UHGV virus genome: UHGV-0209998
DNA length: 20,997 bases
Strand: one strand, 5' to 3'
Source of the DNA: a virus
The notes beneath the pieces are model-generated. The model did no database searches and was not told the DNA's origin. It saw only the letters and a list, made by a program, of their open reading frames with translations. The position numbers and the translations under genes are program-made. Shown piece after piece: positions 5,889-16,593 of this stretch. The stretch's first letter is position 1. Each line of letters starts with the position of its first letter.

Positions 5889-6629
5889 ATGATTAATGAC
5901 TCTATGACAGTTGAAGAAATCCGTCTTCATTTAGGACTTGCATTAAAGGAAAAAGATTTCGTAATTGATAAAACTGGTGTTAAAACTATTGAAATTATTG
6001 GCGCATCATTTGTAGCAGATGAACCCTTTATTTTTGGTGCTCTTAATGACGAATACATTCAGCGTGAACTTGAATGGTACAAGTCTCAAAGTCTGTTTGT
6101 TAAAGATATTCCAGGTGAAACACCAAAGATTTGGCAGCAGGTAGCATCTTCTAAAGGCGAAATTAACTCGAATTATGGTTGGGCTATTTGGTCAGAAGAT
6201 AACTATGCCCAGTATGATATGTGCTTAGCTGAACTTGGTCAAAATCCTGATTCTCGACGTGGTATCATGATTTATACTCGCCCATCTATGCAGTTTGACT
6301 ACAACAAAGACGGCATGTCAGATTTCATGTGTACTAATACAGTACAGTACCTGATTCGTGACAAGAAAATCAATGCAGTTGTTAGCATGCGCTCAAATGA
6401 CGTGGTCTTCGGATTCCGTAATGATTATGCATGGCAAAAATACGTACTAGATAAATTAGTATCTGATTTGAATGCAGGCGATTCAACTCGTCAGTATAAA
6501 GCAGGTTCTATTATATGGAATGTTGGAAGTCTTCATGTATATTCCCGTCATTTTTACTTGGTTGATCATTGGTGGAATACTGGCGAAACTCATATTATGA
6601 AAAAAGATTATAACGGTGAGTGGAAATGA
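5889..6629 (+). CDS. 42: dCMP hydroxymethylase gp42 (thymidylate synthase fold)
   Basis: 246 aa; sequence MINDSMTVEEIRLHLGLALKEKDF... matches T4 gp42 from memory; GAGG SD upstream. Confidence 0.93.
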   Translation: MINDSMTVEEIRLHLGLALKEKDFVIDKTGVKTIEIIGASFVADEPFIFGALNDEYIQRELEWYKSQSLFVKDIPGETPKIWQQVASSKGEINSNYGWAIWSEDNYAQYDMCLAELGQNPDSRRGIMIYTRPSMQFDYNKDGMSDFMCTNTVQYLIRDKKINAVVSMRSNDVVFGFRNDYAWQKYVLDKLVSDLNAGDSTRQYKAGSIIWNVGSLHVYSRHFYLVDHWWNTGETHIMKKDYNGEWK

Positions 6630-7468
6630 TTCAATTTGTAATTCCAAGCTATCAACGCGTAGGGGCAGTTTCTGCCCTTGATATGTTTCCGACTGATTAT
6701 GAACCTCATATCGTAGTACGTGAACATGAAGAAAAAGCTTATTATGACGCTTACGGGTCTAGAGCTAAAATTATAACCATTCCTGATGATGTAAATGGAA
6801 TTGCTGGAACTCGTAAAGCAATTACTGATATGTATGCAGGTCAACGAATCTGGATGATTGACGATGATACTACGATTCGTATGAGCTCAATGCGAAAAAG
6901 AGATGATCGTCGTTGTGTAGATAAAATTAATCAATTAACCCGTGAACAATTCTACGAATTAATTCAATACGCTGAAGATGCTATGGATTGTGGGTATTAT
7001 CACGGTCATGCTCGTTTACCAATTTTTAAAATTACTTCATCTTGGGGTAATTATCGTGAAAATTCATATGGATTCACGAATACATGGTATGACCTCGGAA
7101 AACTTACGACAGAACAAATTGGGTATGGAAAAATTGATTTATGCGAAGATATGTATGCATTTCTCAATTTAATTAATCAAGGTTATCCGCATTTGGCCTT
7201 GTTCAAATACCTGGTTGTATCTGGAAAAGCACAGGCTCCGGGTGGGTGTAGTTCAATTCGTAGTAATTCTAAACATAATAGAGCGCTTGAGCAAATTAAT
7301 AAAGAGTTTCCAGAGCAAGCTCGTTGGAAGACATCTAATATTGAAAAGCGAAAATCGTTGGGTGAAGAAGACGAGCCGTTAAAGGTTCTTCGTATGTGTG
7401 TTTCGCGTAAAGAAAAATCAGAAGCATTTCATAAGTTTAATGCTATTCATCCAATAGCAGTTGATTAA
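6626..7468 (+). CDS. Putative HMC-DNA glycosyltransferase (GT-A-like DxD protein), possibly the T2/T6-type beta-glucosyl-HMC alpha-glucosyltransferase
   Basis: ATG at 6626 overlaps the gene 42 stop (ATGA); the track start at 6620 is GTG. It occupies the locus where T4 has beta-gt but does not resemble T4 beta-gt as I recall it. Has a hydrophobic strand followed by DDD (RIWMIDDDTTI). The specific family call is inference. Confidence 0.55.
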   Translation: MIQFVIPSYQRVGAVSALDMFPTDYEPHIVVREHEEKAYYDAYGSRAKIITIPDDVNGIAGTRKAITDMYAGQRIWMIDDDTTIRMSSMRKRDDRRCVDKINQLTREQFYELIQYAEDAMDCGYYHGHARLPIFKITSSWGNYRENSYGFTNTWYDLGKLTTEQIGYGKIDLCEDMYAFLNLINQGYPHLALFKYLVVSGKAQAPGGCSSIRSNSKHNRALEQINKEFPEQARWKTSNIEKRKSLGEEDEPLKVLRMCVSRKEKSEAFHKFNAIHPIAVD

Positions 7469-11061: not shown

Positions 11062-11355
11062 ATGAAAAAATTTATCTTTGCTACAATTTTTGCTTTAGCT
11101 TCTTGTGCTGCTCAGCCTGCTATGGCAGGCTATGATAAAGATTTGTGTGAATGGTCTATGACTGCGGATCAGACTGAGGTTGAAACCCAGATTGAAGCAG
11201 ATATTATGAATATCGTTGAGCGCGATCGCCCTGAAATGAAAGCTGAAGTGCAAAAACAGCTTAAATCTGGCGGTGTAATGCAGTATAATTATGTTCTGTA
11301 TTGCGATAAAAACTTTAATAACAAAAATATCGTAACCGAAATCACAGGCGAATAA
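11062..11355 (+). CDS. sp: Spackle-like periplasmic protein (97 aa precursor with signal peptide)
   Basis: N-terminus MKKFIFATIFALASCAAQPAMAG is a cleavable signal or lipobox; 97 aa and the position between dmd and 61 match T4 sp (61.3); GAGGAG SD. Confidence 0.65.
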   Translation: MKKFIFATIFALASCAAQPAMAGYDKDLCEWSMTADQTEVETQIEADIMNIVERDRPEMKAEVQKQLKSGGVMQYNYVLYCDKNFNNKNIVTEITGE

Positions 11356-11356
11356 T

Positions 11357-11989
11357 ATGATTTATTATATGCACAAAAATCCACCGTTTAAATACGGTAA
11401 ATTTCCTGATGCACAATGTTATAATATAACGCCTGATGAAAATAACCGTGGATATCTTATTGGCACAATTTTTGTAATTGTTAAAGATAACGAAATCGTT
11501 GCCTGGGCAGATTTTAAAGGTACAACATATGATGTTAATCCGGTGCCTTTCACATATTACAATTTAATGGATTTGGCATACGATTATAATTGGTTTAATC
11601 ATGACACTTTGGCTCATATTGAAGGTGTAGGATTTGATATTTCATATTCGGAATACACTTTAAGCCCTATGAGTCGAGCCCATAAAGAACCTGAATATTT
11701 TTCATTTAGGAAACGTGTAAACTTTAAACGCAGCACAGAGTATGTCGGTGGAATCTTTGTTAAAGATAATCGAATTATTCGTATTAATTATCCTTTGAGC
11801 GTTAGTCAAAAAGATATTGATGTTGATTTAGATTTCACTGAAAATAATATTAATAATATTGCTTCTGCGTATTTTGGTATCGATCACAAAATTGTAATAT
11901 GTGGATATGAATTACCGTTTGAAGAACAGCCTAAAGTAAAAGTTTCTATTGACGATCAAATTTTTAATGCTTTTATGAATAGGGGTTAA
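11357..11989 (+). CDS. Hypothetical protein (210 aa), 61.2 position
   Basis: ATG at 11357, one base after the sp stop. No recognisable catalytic motif. Confidence 0.7.
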   Translation: MIYYMHKNPPFKYGKFPDAQCYNITPDENNRGYLIGTIFVIVKDNEIVAWADFKGTTYDVNPVPFTYYNLMDLAYDYNWFNHDTLAHIEGVGFDISYSEYTLSPMSRAHKEPEYFSFRKRVNFKRSTEYVGGIFVKDNRIIRINYPLSVSQKDIDVDLDFTENNINNIASAYFGIDHKIVICGYELPFEEQPKVKVSIDDQIFNAFMNRG

Positions 11990-12157: not shown

Positions 12158-13186
12158 ATGTCATCAATACCTTGGATTGATAATGAGTTTGCATACCGTG
12201 CATTAGCTCATTTACCTAAATTTACACAAGTAAATAATAGTTCAACTTTTAAATTACGGTTTAGATGCCCAGTTTGTGGAGATTCAAAAACCGACCAGAA
12301 TAAAGCTCGTGGATGGTATTATGGTGATAATAATGAAGGAAATATTCATTGTTATAACTGTAACTATCATGCGCCAATCGGAATATATTTAAAGGAGTTT
12401 GAACCGGATTTATATCGTGAATATATCTTTGAAATAAGAAAAGAAAAAGGTAAAAGTCGTCCAGTAGAAAAACCTAAAGAACTTCCTAAACAACCTGAGA
12501 AGAAAATAATTAAATCTCTTCCGTCATGTGTTAGATTAGATAAACTGGCGGAAGACCATCCAATTATAAAATACGTAAAAGCTCGTTGTATTCCAAAGGA
12601 TAAATGGAAATATCTTTGGTTTACAACTGAATGGCCTAAATTAGTTAATAGCATAGCTCCAGGAACATACAAAAAGGAAATTTCTGAACCTCGACTTGTT
12701 ATTCCAATTTATAATGCTAATGGAAAAGCTGAATCTTTTCAAGGACGCGCATTAAAGAAAGATGCTCCTCAAAAATATATCACCATCAAAGCTTATCCTG
12801 AGGCAACAAAAATTTATGGTGTTGAACGAGTTAAAGATGGTGATGTATATGTTCTAGAAGGACCTATCGATTCACTTTTTATTGAAAATGGTATAGCCAT
12901 TACGGGTGGCCAATTAGACCTAGAAGTTGTTCCATTTAAAGATAGACGTGTGTGGGTCTTAGATAATGAACCTCGACATCCTGATACAATTAAGCGAATG
13001 ACTAAATTAGTCAATGCAGGAGAAAGGGTTATGTTTTGGGATAAATCTCCCTGGAAATCTAAAGATGTCAATGATATGATTAGAAAGGAAGGTGCAACCC
13101 CTGAACAAATTATGGAATATATGAAAAATAATATTGCCCAGGGGTTAATGGCTAAAATGCGGCTATCTAAATATGCCAAGATTTAA
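12158..13186 (+). CDS. 61: gp61 DNA primase (zinc ribbon plus TOPRIM)
   Basis: 342 aa; Cys4 zinc ribbon (CPVCGDS...CYNCNYH) and TOPRIM acidic motifs (VLEGPIDS, VWVLDNEPRHPD). Matches T4 gp61 from memory. Confidence 0.95.
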   Translation: MSSIPWIDNEFAYRALAHLPKFTQVNNSSTFKLRFRCPVCGDSKTDQNKARGWYYGDNNEGNIHCYNCNYHAPIGIYLKEFEPDLYREYIFEIRKEKGKSRPVEKPKELPKQPEKKIIKSLPSCVRLDKLAEDHPIIKYVKARCIPKDKWKYLWFTTEWPKLVNSIAPGTYKKEISEPRLVIPIYNANGKAESFQGRALKKDAPQKYITIKAYPEATKIYGVERVKDGDVYVLEGPIDSLFIENGIAITGGQLDLEVVPFKDRRVWVLDNEPRHPDTIKRMTKLVNAGERVMFWDKSPWKSKDVNDMIRKEGATPEQIMEYMKNNIAQGLMAKMRLSKYAKI

Positions 13187-13383
13187 ATTAGCCCAACTAG
13201 AGCAAATGCTAAATCTACGAATGTATCAAGAGTAACTACTGGAATATTAACACCATGCGCAATTGCAATTGGTGATAAAATAAAGTTCCAGAGTAAAATT
13301 CCTACCATAGCAGAAATAGTAAAAGCTATACGCTTTTTATTACCTTTTATGGCATTGACAAGTGCCATTAATTTTTGTACCAT
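13183..13383 (-). CDS. Hypothetical small membrane protein (66 aa), antisense to all neighbours
   Basis: Only convincing minus-strand ORF in the window. Minus-strand AAGGAGG sits 4 nt before the ATG (complement of 13381-13383). Hydrophobic core AFTISAMVGILLWNFILSPIAIAHGV. Its 3' end overlaps the gene 61 stop by 4 nt. Confidence 0.5.
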   Translation of the reverse strand: MVQKLMALVNAIKGNKKRIAFTISAMVGILLWNFILSPIAIAHGVNIPVVTLDTFVDLAFALVGLI

Positions 13384-13392
13384 ATGTCCTCC

Positions 13393-13419
13393 TTATTGCT
13401 TTATATATTTATTGTATGA
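13393..13419 (+). promoter_or_regulatory. Candidate MotA-dependent middle promoter for gene 56
   Basis: MotA-box-like TTATTGCTTTA (13393-13403), 10 nt spacer, -10 TATGAT (13414-13419); about 40 nt upstream of the gene 56 ATG. Confidence 0.45.
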
Positions 13420-13455
13420 TTAATCTACTAACCCATGAATTGAAAGGAAAAAATA

Positions 13456-13974
13456 ATGGCTTACTTTAATGAATGTGCTCATTTGATCGAAGGTGTTGAT
13501 AAAGCAAATCGTGCATATGCTGAGAATATTATGCACAATATTGACCCACTGCAGGTTATGCTTGATATGCAACGGCATTTACAGATTCGTTTGGCTAACG
13601 ATAAACCAGAAACAAATCGTCATCCCGATTCACTTGAAACTGCGGGAGAAGTTCTTGCTTGGTTGCGAAACCAAGACGATTATATCGCAGACGAAACTCG
13701 CGAGCTATATACTTCTCTTGGCGGTATGAGTAATGGTGAAAAAGAAGCTTCTGCTGTATGGAAACCTTGGAAGAAACGTTATTCTGAAATGCAATCCAAA
13801 AAAATTCAAGATTTATCTCCCGAAGATCAGCTTGAAATTAAATTTGAACTTATTGACCAATTTCACTTTTTCATGAATAAATTCATTGCTCTTGGAATGT
13901 CAGCTGAAGAAATCTTTAAACTTTATTATCTGAAAAATGCTGAAAACTTCGCTCGTCAAGACCGAGGTTATTAA
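13456..13974 (+). CDS. 56: gp56 dCTPase/dUTPase (dCTP pyrophosphatase)
   Basis: 172 aa; sequence MAYFNECAHLIEGVDKA...EEIFKLYYLKNAENFARQDRGY matches T4 gp56 from memory, including the conserved C-terminus. Confidence 0.88.
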   Translation: MAYFNECAHLIEGVDKANRAYAENIMHNIDPLQVMLDMQRHLQIRLANDKPETNRHPDSLETAGEVLAWLRNQDDYIADETRELYTSLGGMSNGEKEASAVWKPWKKRYSEMQSKKIQDLSPEDQLEIKFELIDQFHFFMNKFIALGMSAEEIFKLYYLKNAENFARQDRGY

Positions 13975-14163
13975 TGGCTCGTTTAAATAAACGCCAGCTT
14001 AAGAAAGCCCACAAGAAACGTATTGACAGCTATTTAAAGATTATGACAAAGAGCTCGTATGTGAGCTCTTAACTAATCAGCTTCGTATGGTTGAAGTTAC
14101 AGAAGGTCATGACGAAATTTATGTCAGTGAAGAAGCTTTAAAATTAATTATAGAGCATTCAAA

Positions 14164-14373
14164 ATGAAATTTGATTTCTACGCATGGCAAAAAGCCGGGA
14201 GACCGGCTACTCGAGCATTTGGTTCTGATGGATATAATATTAGAGCCCATTGGAAATTTAATGCTCCAGAAGATTATTCTCCGGTAATCATTAACGGCGA
14301 TGTTGTTATATTAACTAAAATCGGGTATTTTAACGTTCCGCGAGAATTTATTATAAATAATCATGTAATTTAA
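14164..14373 (+). CDS. Hypothetical protein (69 aa)
   Basis: ATG at 14164; no motif. Its 3' end contains the late-promoter box for soc. Confidence 0.55.
   Translation: MKFDFYAWQKAGRPATRAFGSDGYNIRAHWKFNAPEDYSPVIINGDVVILTKIGYFNVPREFIINNHVI
14353..14360 (+). promoter_or_regulatory. Late promoter box (TATAAATA) upstream of soc
   Basis: Exact TATAAATA at 14353-14360, 30 nt upstream of the soc ATG. I found no other exact copy near a gene start on a partial scan. Confidence 0.5.
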
Positions 14374-14389
14374 ATAAAAGGAGAATTAC

Positions 14390-14635: not shown

Positions 14636-14640
14636 ATTCA

Positions 14641-14666
14641 AGGACTCCTTCGGGAGTCCTTTTTTC
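14641..14666 (+). terminator. Rho-independent terminator after soc
   Basis: 8 bp stem AGGACTCC / GGAGTCCT with a TTCG tetraloop, followed by TTTTTT (14661-14666). Confidence 0.8.
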
Positions 14667-14676
14667 ATTTAAATGG

Positions 14677-14705
14677 TTTACATATCAAAATGGGTATGGT
14701 ATAAT
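14677..14705 (+). promoter_or_regulatory. Early promoter
   Basis: -35 TTTACA (14677-14682), 17 nt spacer, TGg + TATAAT (14700-14705). Confidence 0.55.
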
Positions 14706-14731: not shown

Positions 14732-14944
14732 ATGTTAAATCGTTGGATTAAACCAAATGAAGACCTCCAGAAGGTTCTTGATAAAGCTATCTCTGATAAA
14801 TGGGGTATGAAAAGCTGGGATTGTGATGTCGTCACGCATTCATTCATGATGCATGCAGATGGTTCAGTCGAGTTCAATGCTGAAATGCGATACACTGACT
14901 GGGGTGGATTTCAAAGAGTCGAATTTCAAAGAGGCTTTTTGTAA
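14732..14944 (+). CDS. Hypothetical protein (70 aa)
   Basis: ATG at 14732 with GAGGAGAG upstream, downstream of the early promoter. No motif. Confidence 0.6.
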   Translation: MLNRWIKPNEDLQKVLDKAISDKWGMKSWDCDVVTHSFMMHADGSVEFNAEMRYTDWGGFQRVEFQRGFL

Positions 14945-15285
14945 TGTTTATCTTTAATTGGTTTAAAAATTTCTTTACGGATTTTTTCTCTACAACTCCG
15001 GGAGAAGGTGTAGTTCCTATTTCAAATGACTACCTTCCTTTAACTGTAGTTGAATATGTTTATATGGGAGATGGAACAGTAGAAGCAGTTACTATGACTT
15101 ATGAAGAAGCCCAAGAATATTATAAAAATCCTTGGCGTTGGTCAACACCTACTACATCGTCTAATACGCAGAATACACAGTCTAGTTCTGATTCATATGA
15201 CACTAATGTTCCTGTTCATGTATGGGCAGGTGATTCATGTGGAAGTTCTTGTGATTCTGGTTGTTCATCTACATCTTGTGATTGA
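14944..15285 (+). CDS. Hypothetical protein (113 aa) with Ser/Thr-rich linker and Cys-rich C-terminal tail
   Basis: ATG at 14944 overlaps the preceding stop (TAATG). C-terminus ...[47 protein letters not shown]. Confidence 0.6.
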
Positions 15286-15293
15286 GGAAAATT

Positions 15294-15779
15294 ATGGAAG
15301 CGATTTTGTTTGAAATGTATATTAGCAGTAATAACATGTCATTTGCTAAAGATGTTCCAATTACTGTAGCCGTAATAATTGATAAGGGTTATTGTAACCC
15401 TATGTATCTCGTAGAAAATTTCGTTTCAATGCCAGTTCCAGAAGATGCTGAAATAAAACTTAAAAAGATCGGAATTATTGAAACTGTACCAAATAGTCCG
15501 TTTAGAGCAATTGAAGCATTTACTAAATCCGAATACATTAATGTCAGCGCAGAACAATATAATGATAACCCTTTATCTTTTTATTCGTATGATTCAGTAT
15601 ATGACTGGAAAATAGATAAAGGAAATAAATTTATAATTGCGAGTGAAGATGCTTTATCATACTTTATTTATTATGTATGGAATAATTTAAATCCTAATTT
15701 GCTAAAAATTCATGAATTTGACGATGCTCCTACTATTGTTTTAGGTAAAACAAATGAAAGTTCTGAAGAAGATGCTTGA
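15294..15779 (+). CDS. Hypothetical protein (161 aa)
   Basis: ATG at 15294 with GAGGAAA upstream; the track start at 15282 is TTG. No motif. Confidence 0.6.
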
Positions 15780-15957: not shown

Positions 15958-16118
15958 ACAAGAATATGATGTTAGAAGAGGCTAAGGCTAAAGCAAATGA
16001 AGCCTTAGATTTGCTTCTTAAAATCGGTAGTAAAATGATGGAAGAAAATGAGAAATATATCCAGGAAAACAAAATTCCTGATGGTCCATTAGTAGGCAAG
16101 AGGAAATCACATGATTGA
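15954..16118 (+). CDS. Hypothetical small protein (54 aa), not in ORF track
   Basis: ATG at 15954 overlaps the preceding stop (ATGA); product [54 protein letters not shown]; overlaps the next ORF start by 8 nt. Confidence 0.4.
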
Positions 16119-16593
16119 AGTAGCAAAACATTATTCAATAGAATTTATGTCTAAAGAAGGTAAATCAGTAAATACACTTGATAAAAATTGCTCGTTAATT
16201 ATTCCTTTAGCAGAAAATCCGGATATTTTAATTAAAGATATAAAAGAAAGAAAATATCCAGAAAATATTATTCTAATTATAAAGCATACTGAAGATATTT
16301 TGCAGAATACAGATTCACCATTTTCTTCTTCTGAAGCTTTAACTATTAAAGGCTATAAAAGAGCTCACGAATATGGTCTTTTTGACCTGTTTGAAGATGA
16401 TAAAGTTAAATTAGCACTTAATTTAACAGGCCAGCCTTCTAAAAGTAAAACATTCATTATTGAAGATATTAAAGATATAAACGCATTTGTTAAGATGGTC
16501 TGGGCTCATTTTGATGTTGGACTACGTTGGAGAATGTCCGAAGAAGAAAGAAAGATTGCTGAAGCTAATCGTCATTTTGGTTTTTATCGCTAG
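16111..16593 (+). CDS. Hypothetical protein (160 aa)
   Basis: ATG at 16111 with AGGAAA upstream. No motif recognised. Confidence 0.6.

Follow-up and report, generated by a model that had tools for sequence, protein, structure and literature searches.

What a cysteine-rich tail might do on a small early protein of a T4-like phage is the question raised by one open reading frame (ORF) of UHGV-0209998, a viral sequence analysed here as a single window of 20,997 nucleotides (the whole stretch, with position 1 as its first letter). The ORF, at 14944–15285, corresponds to the T4 gene mrh.1. A preliminary description of the window had singled it out for a polar linker followed by four closely spaced Cys residues, and had proposed a small metal-binding knuckle, a disulfide-rich tail or a substrate for modification. 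Comparison across the protein family indicates that the conserved unit is a Ser/Asp arm with two Cys-Asp pairs, and not a four-Cys zinc knuckle.

The reading frame itself was confirmed, from ATG to TGA:

14944..15285, + strand: mrh.1 ortholog, ATG start, TGA stop, 113 aa; Pfam DUF7206 and phrog_2031

The product has a calculated mass of 12.6 kDa and an isoelectric point of 4.05; its acidic residues number 14 and its basic ones 3. The match to Pfam DUF7206 (PF23836) scores 104.4 bits against a cut-off of 25.6 bits (E = 6.1e-30) and extends over the full length, residues 3–113 aligning to profile positions 1–107 of 107. A match to phrog_2031, a group labelled 'unknown function', was obtained with E = 3.7e-33. 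Both motifs of the DUF7206 family are present, EYVYMGDG at residues 37–44 and SCD at the C-terminus, and 111 of the 113 residues are identical to those of T4 Mrh.1 (NP_049642, 'Mrh.1 hypothetical protein'), the only differences being N9S and G105S. The window is a Tequatrovirus segment (top identity 96.5%, to Escherichia phage a51 and its relatives) in which the genes follow the order gene 44, 43, 42, uvsX, 41, 61, 56, soc, mrh.2, mrh.1, mrh, srh, modA.4-.2, modB, modA, srd, dda. As in T4, mrh.1 lies between mrh.2 and mrh with soc upstream, and the same order was found in two related loci (L008 and L031). On the combined strength of the Pfam match, the mere two differences from T4, the T4 gene order and annotation, and the presence of the gene in approximately 500 Tequatrovirus records, it is practically certain that the ORF is a DUF7206 member orthologous to the T4 early gene mrh.1. 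The two share family, genomic slot, tail and a promoter–mrh.2–mrh.1–mrh arrangement, and nothing of substance is different. The family is already catalogued and the T4 gene was annotated decades ago, with DUF7206 still lacking an assigned function; a literature search returned no relevant paper on mrh.1 or DUF7206, the gene being mentioned only in the supplements of screens.

The tail of the window protein does contain four Cys, at residues 99, 103, 107 and 112. Their spacing is C-x3-C-x3-C-x4-C; the last interval had previously been counted as x5, one residue too many. The preceding linker is as polar as described, with 18 of the 22 residues at 67–88 being Ser, Thr, Asn or Gln. The arm and its Cys residues map to the DNA as follows, with model confidence given as the predicted local distance difference test (pLDDT):

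15223..15282, + strand: C-terminal acidic Ser-rich arm, predicted disordered (pLDDT 40–47; family tail statistics; synonymous codon variation)
15238..15240, + strand: Cys99, a Tequatrovirus-specific extra Cys (four Cys in the tail of clusters P0001, P0002, P0003 and P0005 only)
15250..15255, + strand: upstream Cys-Asp dyad conserved in the family, C103-D104 within S-C-D-S-G (motif context; near-invariant in alignment A2)
15262..15264, + strand: Cys107, the second Tequatrovirus-specific extra Cys (family comparison)
15277..15282, + strand: terminal Cys-Asp dyad C112-D113-COOH (family-wide position counts)

The assignment of C103 as the conserved upstream Cys was made by motif context, alignment A1 instead pairing C107 with that column. 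Judged by composition, the Cys cluster is no more than mildly unusual. When the residues of the 34 proteins of the window were shuffled, at least four Cys fell within some 14-residue stretch in 84 of 2000 shuffles, and such a cluster fell within the last 15 residues of a protein in 3 of 2000. Among the ORFs of the window, no other has such a tail. The decisive evidence that the tail is more than chance is its conservation in the family.

This conservation was assessed on 100 full-length cluster representatives, collected by word-indexed and exhaustive HMMER searches and then by a profile search. The named hosts of these phages are Escherichia, Shigella, Salmonella, Citrobacter, Yersinia, Klebsiella, Enterobacter, Kosakonia, Serratia, Edwardsiella, Cronobacter and Erwinia. 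As an accessory protein, Mrh.1 is found only in T4-like phages of Enterobacterales and can be dispensed with in the laboratory. Among the representatives, the four-Cys tail is limited to the Tequatrovirus clusters listed above. It is well kept in that genus, with an intact tail in a cluster of 515 sequences and tail DNA at ≥90% identity in 494 phage records. Outside Tequatrovirus two of the Cys are replaced, by Tyr or Ser in the Mosig/Dhaka-like tails (WTGDSSYSSYDSGSCDSSSSSCD), and exactly two Cys are found in the last 25 residues of 95 of the 100 representatives. What persists throughout is the very end of the protein. All 100 representatives have Cys at position -2; the last residue (-1) is Asp in 98 of them and Asn in the other 2, and -3 is occupied by Ser in 94 and by Gly in 6. 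The upstream Cys is embedded nearly as strictly, in the context S(93)-C-D(87)-S(98)-[S/G]-S(95) (counts out of 100). Two Cys-Asp dyads are present in 89 of the 100 tails, the two tail Cys being separated by 4–12 residues with a mode of 6; in 82 tails a Y-[D/G] dyad, or two of them, is found N-terminal to the Cys dyads. The consensus of the arm is SYDSGSSCDS(S/G)3-6(S/G)CD-COOH, which can be read as a degenerate repeat of the type [S]n-[Y/C]-D-S-G whose last two units carry Cys.

The composition of the arm is equally selective. Among the 2500 pooled tail residues, Asp occurs 351 times and Glu never, Ser 1136 times as opposed to 88 for Thr, and Lys, Arg and His together only 8 times; selectivity of this kind is typical of liganding or turn-forming positions, not of generic acidity. 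The Cys residues are dedicated to the tail, since only seven occur elsewhere in all 100 proteins. The tail is conserved in homologs, contrary to the possibility that it is peculiar to one sequence. No paper describing the Mrh.1 tail motif was found in the literature search. The definition of this motif across the family, with its selectivity for particular residues, could not be found described and is apparently new; it represents a useful handle rather than a new system.

Comparison of the coding DNA indicates at which level the constraint operates. Between lineages the Ser codons interchange between TCN and AGY, the Cys codons between TGT and TGC and the Asp codons between GAT and GAC with the residues unchanged, and this synonymous variation argues that selection acts on the protein. 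The same interchange of codons ruled out a DNA repeat or slippage as a sufficient cause of the tail. A further candidate explanation, that the terminal Cys-Asp is a by-product of the ribosome-binding site of the next gene, was likewise discarded: the DNA following the stop codon is unrelated between lineages (TGAGGAAAATTATG, TAAATG, TAATGA, TAACTG and others) and the Cys-Asp is kept. Nor is the tail a frameshift artefact. Frameshifted mrh.1 copies were encountered as singletons only (P0006 and L007), as opposed to the 515 sequences of the intact cluster, and are probably sequencing errors or pseudogenes. P0006 runs into an ORF in the +1 frame (window 15101–15313) and the L007 copy (2001–2087) stops after 35 codons. 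The overlapping ORF at 15101..15313 was considered and rejected as a gene, representing the frame that the rare frameshifted copy P0006 enters.

The remainder of the protein was examined with an AlphaFold2 (AF2) model built on a 74-sequence alignment (mean pLDDT 60, predicted template modelling score (pTM) 0.31). Upstream of the arm three segments can be distinguished:

14947..14991, + strand: N-terminal aromatic amphipathic helix, residues 2–16 (AF2 helix 3–15; hydrophobic moment 0.48–0.54, close to the 95th percentile of internal 11-mers)
15043..15126, + strand: mini-core, a beta-hairpin with EYVYMGDG (residues 34–52) and a short helix (53–61), pLDDT 81–90
15127..15222, + strand: variable linker, Ser/Thr/Asn/Gln-rich in Tequatrovirus and with Lys/Arg/Glu-rich helical segments in other genera

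In the model a helix spans residues 3–15, the hairpin is formed by strands 34–40 and 46–52 (pLDDT 81–90) and a second helix covers 53–61, while everything from residue 62 to the end is modelled without confident structure (pLDDT 40–47). A model of a 50%-identical Mosig-like member reproduced the N-terminal helix and the hairpin (pLDDT 86), placed two helices of low confidence in the linker and, again, left the tail unstructured. With a tail pLDDT of 40–50 in both models, the arm is probably disordered or flexible. The N-terminus is strongly amphipathic. Eight of the first 16 residues are aromatic, and the N-terminal hydrophobic moment amounts to 0.48–0.63 across members, as compared to 0.53 for the 95th percentile of internal 11-mers. 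A phi-phi-K-x-x-phi pattern is found at the N-terminus of 89 of the 100 relatives, and the hairpin motif [ED][YW]x[Y][MVI]GDG in 94. From these features we infer that the N-terminal helix may anchor the protein at a membrane surface.

Two groups of relatives illustrate how loosely these segments are connected. P0003 (Escherichia phage 235Ecol030PP, 164 aa, in a cluster of 17 members) is a mosaic Mrh.1 in which a Tequatrovirus N-terminal half with its Ser-rich linker is followed by a Mosig-type middle part (MEEIIRQPEKAGNVG...LNSKKLKEHLD...IITATAVSSW) and then by the four-Cys Tequatrovirus tail. Its layout reads as evidence of intergeneric recombination inside mrh.1, with an exchangeable linker. 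The divergent proteins P0105 and P0107 lack the core motif EYxYMGDG and have kept the N-terminal helix and the tail. Because the tail is retained in proteins without the core, and because the linker is exchangeable, the tail is the most persistent module of Mrh.1. In combination, conservation and modelling show four modules: an aromatic amphipathic helix, a hairpin core with EYxYMGDG, an exchangeable linker and a disordered Ser/Asp/Gly/Tyr arm.

Searches for relatives of known function gave no lead. A sequence profile search of the PDB and a Foldseek search of the AF2 model against the PDB yielded nothing below E = 1, although at a pTM of 0.31 fold matches would be meaningless anyway. Pfam and NCBIfam contained no match besides DUF7206, and no zinc-finger family in particular, and the PADLOC models of defence-associated proteins gave no match for Mrh.1, Mrh.2 or three relatives. 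A profile of the tail alone, searched against 5.8 billion proteins, gave nothing significant (best E = 0.28). It did surface, at a non-significant E of 0.3–0.7, proteins of 47–64 aa (P0108, P0109, P0110 and P0114) with Arg/Glu-rich N-termini and ends of the form ...SYDSCDSSSPSCD or ...SSGCD. One of these, P0110, is encoded directly 3' of dda in the 183-kb T4-like Citrobacter phage Ci1 (OR515478.1; L032 5001–5177); together with the protein at L034 1859–2041 it has 58–60 aa, an Arg/Glu-rich N-terminal helix and a tail reading ...SYNSDSSYDSCDSSSPSCD or ...SYDSGSSCTDTSSSFSSGCD. The resemblance suggests that such mini-proteins may carry a portable, stripped-down form of the same tail module. A tblastn search with P0110 against phage records gave no match, probably owing to the low-complexity filter. 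A seemingly transmembrane-anchored archaeal tail carrier, P0111, was discarded, being cut by the end of its contig. At the DNA level, the pattern C-D-S-x-S-x-S-C-D-stop, limited to a spacing of 6 and to TCN Ser codons, was scanned against IMG/VR, where it hit DUF7206 genes and short non-ORFs only, and against 185,579 bacterial and archaeal species genomes (GTDB), where short non-ORFs only were found. Within the limits of this pattern there is no support for the tail being a copy of a host protein C-terminus.

Published screens of T4 provide a weak functional signal, with at most a mild contribution of mrh.1 to fitness. In CRISPRi-ART the gene was classed 'Semi-Fit' with a score of 0.79 and a listed statistic of 0.069, and mrh.2, mrh, srh and soc were classed 'Not Fit' (PMC11879866 supplement). 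In HIDEN-SEQ, insertions in mrh.1 were recovered at 31/31 sites and the gene was scored 'Non-essential', with no significant conditional change; bas37_0138, which occupies the equivalent place between mrh and soc in Bas37, was likewise without significant conditional change (10.1101/2025.11.20.689424).

The reading that we tentatively prefer, with a probability of roughly 0.3, is that Mrh.1 is a membrane-proximal and possibly oligomeric protein whose flexible thiolate/carboxylate arm would chelate a metal ion, which could be a free one or one bound by a host metalloprotein. The N-terminal helix would hold the protein at the cytoplasmic side of the inner membrane, drive self-association, or do both. 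The arm would offer as ligands two Cys thiolates, the carboxylates of the Asp next to them and that of the free C-terminus, with additional ones, possibly shared between subunits, in an oligomer. It would capture a divalent metal ion of borderline or soft character (Zn2+-like), be it free or the metal centre of a host metalloprotein. Tequatrovirus would have strengthened the arm by two further Cys. This chelator reading draws on the dedication of Cys to the tail, the use of Asp and never Glu as partner, the exclusion of basic residues, the extra Cys of Tequatrovirus and a precedent in ZntA. The N-terminal segments of ZntA bind Zn, Cd and Pb. As read from the genome of E. coli K-12, this N-terminus is NDCCCDGACSSTPT...GMDCAAC, with the segments CCCDGAC and GMDCAAC; as in Mrh.1, Cys and Asp are combined in a flexible, partly Ser/Thr-rich segment of an inner-membrane protein, and CDGACSST of ZntA may be set beside CDSGCSST of the window protein. 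However, the two are not homologous, ZntA being a P-type ATPase with a ferredoxin-fold metal-binding domain whereas metal binding by Mrh.1 is putative, and the Mrh.1 family outside Tequatrovirus keeps only two Cys.

Several points weigh against such a chelator. Metal binding, membrane association and any target are putative; two Cys at a spacing of 4–12 constitute no recognised chelate geometry, the tail has neither CxxC nor His, and a Ser-rich context is unusual for metal sites. A low pLDDT is no proof of disorder, and amphipathic N-termini are common and non-specific. The ZntA likeness was found post hoc and concerns the Tequatrovirus variant only. The tolerance of insertions at all 31 sites and the lack of a conditional phenotype in the strains tested mean, furthermore, that any function is conditional or redundant. 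Finally, the conserved Tyr upstream of the Cys is left unexplained by simple Zn chelation.

The main rival is a redox or sulfur-handling arm, in which the Cys pair would cycle between dithiol and disulfide or persulfide forms and serve as a shuttle or decoy for thioredoxin/glutaredoxin or for a cysteine-desulfurase relay; on balance we consider this improbable. It would reproduce the design of the α-subunit tail of class Ia ribonucleotide reductase (RNR), namely a Cys pair on a flexible acidic arm at the C-terminus, a C-[DE]-S-G element and the last Cys 1–2 residues from the end, as seen by setting the real C-termini of E. coli NrdA (...DDGCESGACKI) and T4 NrdA (...ADDCAACKL) against that of Mrh.1 (...SSCDSG...SCD). 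The invariably penultimate last Cys of the 100 relatives and the flexibility of the tail predicted in two AF2 models are consistent with such an arm. Still, the likeness is one of design only, and was compared at the level of the C-terminal sequence only. The RNR tail sits on an enzyme of 750 aa, ends in K-[IL] and spaces its Cys by 2–4 residues, whereas Mrh.1 has 113 aa, no RNR or other catalytic domain and a Cys spacing of 4–12 with a mode of 6. DsrC and TusE also place a strictly conserved penultimate Cys on a flexible C-terminal arm. DsrC has a second Cys some residues upstream of the penultimate one and ends in ...TGCV. The Ser/Asp context and terminal Asp of Mrh.1 are unlike this end, and neither a fold nor a sequence match to the DsrC family, nor any homology to RNR or TusE, was obtained in the Pfam, NCBIfam and PDB sequence and fold searches. 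From general chemistry, flanking Asp residues with no basic residue nearby would moreover be expected to shift the thiol pKa upwards and so to disfavour rapid exchange between thiol and disulfide. A metal-independent docking function, with ...S-C-D-COOH and S-C-D-S-G as short linear motifs fitting a pocket of a host or phage protein and Cys selected for its shape or for a covalent adduct, in the manner of other C-terminal-tail mimics, would account for position-specific conservation that reaches the free C-terminus of an arm disordered in the AF2 models. It would also suit the modular, exchangeable nature of the rest of the protein (the P0003 mosaic; P0105 and P0107 without the core), and the mini-proteins of unrelated N-termini bear a similar tail, albeit at the non-significant E given above. 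Yet there is no known partner, the scan of the 185,579 genomes (spacing 6 and TCN Ser only) turned up no host protein ending in the same residues, and docking explains neither the presence of two dyads nor the Tyr-rich repeats that precede them, so that this explanation, too, appears unlikely.

The proposals of the preliminary description fare worse. A knuckle of the form C-x3-C-x3-C-x4-C folded around one Zn2+ would suit the four Cys within 14 residues of the window protein and their retention throughout Tequatrovirus, but two of the four are absent from every other genus, and the two tail Cys found in 95 of 100 relatives stand 4–12 residues apart. Zinc knuckles and ribbons are recognised by four conserved Cys/His, usually arranged as two CxxC-type pairs; the Mrh.1 family has only two conserved tail Cys and lacks a CxxC or CPxC turn, the protein gave no zinc-finger Pfam match, and the tail is unstructured in both AF2 models. 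As a family-wide mechanism the knuckle is contradicted by the pattern of conservation, and we regard it as largely refuted and very improbable. A disulfide-rich tail is unlikely as well, since inspection revealed no signal peptide and the protein should therefore stay in the reducing cytoplasm. Modification of the tail, either as a core resembling those of ribosomally synthesized and post-translationally modified peptides (RiPPs; azole, lanthionine or thioether) or as a Ser/Tyr/Cys acceptor for glycosylation, phosphorylation or nucleotidylation, has compositional grounds. The precursors of microcin B17 and of thiopeptides carry Ser/Cys-rich C-terminal cores, to which the end of this small protein bears a likeness, and the ordered Tyr-then-Cys repeats of the [S]n-[Y/C]-D-S-G type resemble repeated acceptor sites. 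The neighbourhood offers no counterpart: no tail-modifying enzyme (YcaO, LanB/C/M, radical SAM and similar) was found among the neighbouring genes in the window or in loci L008, L028, L030 and L031, the neighbours of mrh.1 being soc, mrh.2, mrh, srh and the mod genes. The ADP-ribosyltransferases ModA and ModB are Arg-specific, and the tail is essentially devoid of Arg. Mrh.1 is furthermore a cytoplasmic early product of a dispensable gene, and a modification substrate is accordingly judged highly unlikely.

A more specific idea, which must be considered a long shot and is built on analogy, is that Mrh.1, tethered to the membrane, would inhibit a host zinc metalloenzyme as a pseudo-substrate; the most attractive candidate is FtsH, the AAA+ protease of the inner membrane. 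The amphipathic N-terminus would place Mrh.1 beside FtsH, the disordered arm would be engaged like a substrate tail, and the thiol and carboxylate of the terminal Ser-Cys-Asp-COOH would ligate the catalytic Zn, a chemistry similar to that of mercapto-carboxylate inhibitors of metalloproteases. Lambda CIII and Bacillus SpoVM, two small proteins with an amphipathic helix, associate with the membrane, are inhibitors as well as substrates of FtsH, and act on the sigma32/FtsH axis (PMC1838920). Mrh.1 resembles them in being a small protein with a predicted amphipathic helix of high hydrophobic moment; it differs in that neither has a Cys-Asp tail, and no sequence similarity to Mrh.1 was established. 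If the idea is true, sigma32 would be stabilised and the supply of chaperones raised, which would fit the adjacent genes mrh and srh, annotated in T4 as sigma32 modulators. A T4-related phage is known to stabilise sigma32 via a different protein, Rki (PMC3486835).

The signals around the gene are consistent with early expression. The following features flank mrh.1:

14640..14669, + strand: intrinsic terminator after soc (hairpin 14640–14661), a 9-pair stem followed by a T-run; strong
14677..14705, + strand: predicted sigma-70/T4-early-type promoter-like site, TTTACA, 17-nt spacer, TG-n-TATAAT
14732..14944, + strand: mrh.2 ortholog, 70 aa, phrog_1873, function unknown
15284..15296, + strand: Shine-Dalgarno GAGGA and ATG of the downstream gene mrh, the Shine-Dalgarno overlapping the mrh.1 stop codon

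The terminator 3' of soc would part the late, structural soc transcript from the early unit downstream; its hairpin scores on both strands, with a clean T-run on the + strand only. An early promoter had previously been placed at 14677, and a promoter-like site matching the consensus at 11 of 12 positions, with an extended -10 TG, does lie there; this is a prediction from the consensus and not transcript evidence. Transcription of mrh.1 together with mrh.2 from this early-type promoter is plausible. The TAATG overlap described earlier, in which the TAA stop of mrh.2 overlaps the mrh.1 ATG, is present, GAGG is located 9 nt 5' of this ATG, and the gene downstream was identified as mrh (Pfam T4_MRH). 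Mosig/Dhaka-like phages have the mrh.2–mrh.1 pair as well, again with the stop of the first gene overlapping or abutting the start of the second; at the most divergent mrh.1 loci the upstream genes are unrelated. Possible remote relatives of Mrh.2 are encoded 5' of two divergent mrh.1 homologs (L014 1756–2007 and L031 3741–4001). These two upstream genes share W-x-K-P...CGGIN-[DE]-LI...VVVHAYREVGT-x-LEAS-x-E and faintly resemble Mrh.2 (RWIKPN...VVTHSFMMHADGSVEFNAE), with a phmmer E of only 0.009–0.08.

Elsewhere in the window, several features depart from T4 or merit a separate record. Unlike in T4, there is no dam between gene 61 (12158–13186) and gene 56 (13456–13974), the gap spanning 13187–13455. 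At the site occupied in T4 by the homing endonuclease gene segF, between 56 and soc (window 13975–14389), a 69-aa DUF7422 ORF (14164–14373) and a 32-aa ORF are found instead. A 280-aa protein encoded at 6626–7468, adjoining gene 42 (dCMP hydroxymethylase), matches Pfam TAGT (TET-associated glycosyltransferase) with E = 2e-9. In T4 the region near gene 42 carries the beta-glucosyltransferase, and the set of genes for sugar modification of hydroxymethylcytosine in the window thus looks T2/T6-like rather than T4-like. Spackle (11062–11355) and the anti-DarT factor AdfA (11357–11989, E = 1e-138) are both intact. The modA.3 ortholog (16111–16593) is a paralog of mrh (15294–15779), with Pfam T4_MRH E-values of 1e-37 and 2.5e-43, so that the region holds two Mrh-family genes with srh and modA.4 between them. 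Two observations concern related loci: just 5' of dda in Citrobacter phage Ci1 (L032 736–3760), a 693-aa ADP-ribosylating-toxin-like protein (PF03496) adjoins a 301-aa ADP-ribosylglycohydrolase (PF03747), and on the metagenomic phage contig that carries P0107, the most divergent Mrh.1-like gene, a 466-aa Band_7 (SPFH/HflK-like) protein is encoded approximately 2 kb downstream (L028 5938–7338).

After 60 years of study mrh.1 is one of many T4 early genes without a function; a genome-wide knock-down screen scored just five wholly unknown genes as contributing to fitness, and mrh.1 is among them (PMC11879866). The conserved business end of its product is now seen to be a sharply defined motif, two Cys-Asp dyads in a Ser/Asp/Gly/Tyr arm that never uses Glu and rarely Thr or basic residues. 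This motif is kept across T4-like phages of many Enterobacterales, and it makes a hypothetical protein experimentally approachable. Were the arm merely to buffer metal, Mrh.1 would have a minor accessory function. Conversely, if it is true that the arm targets a host metalloprotein or thiol pathway, Mrh.1 would represent a new type of phage takeover device.

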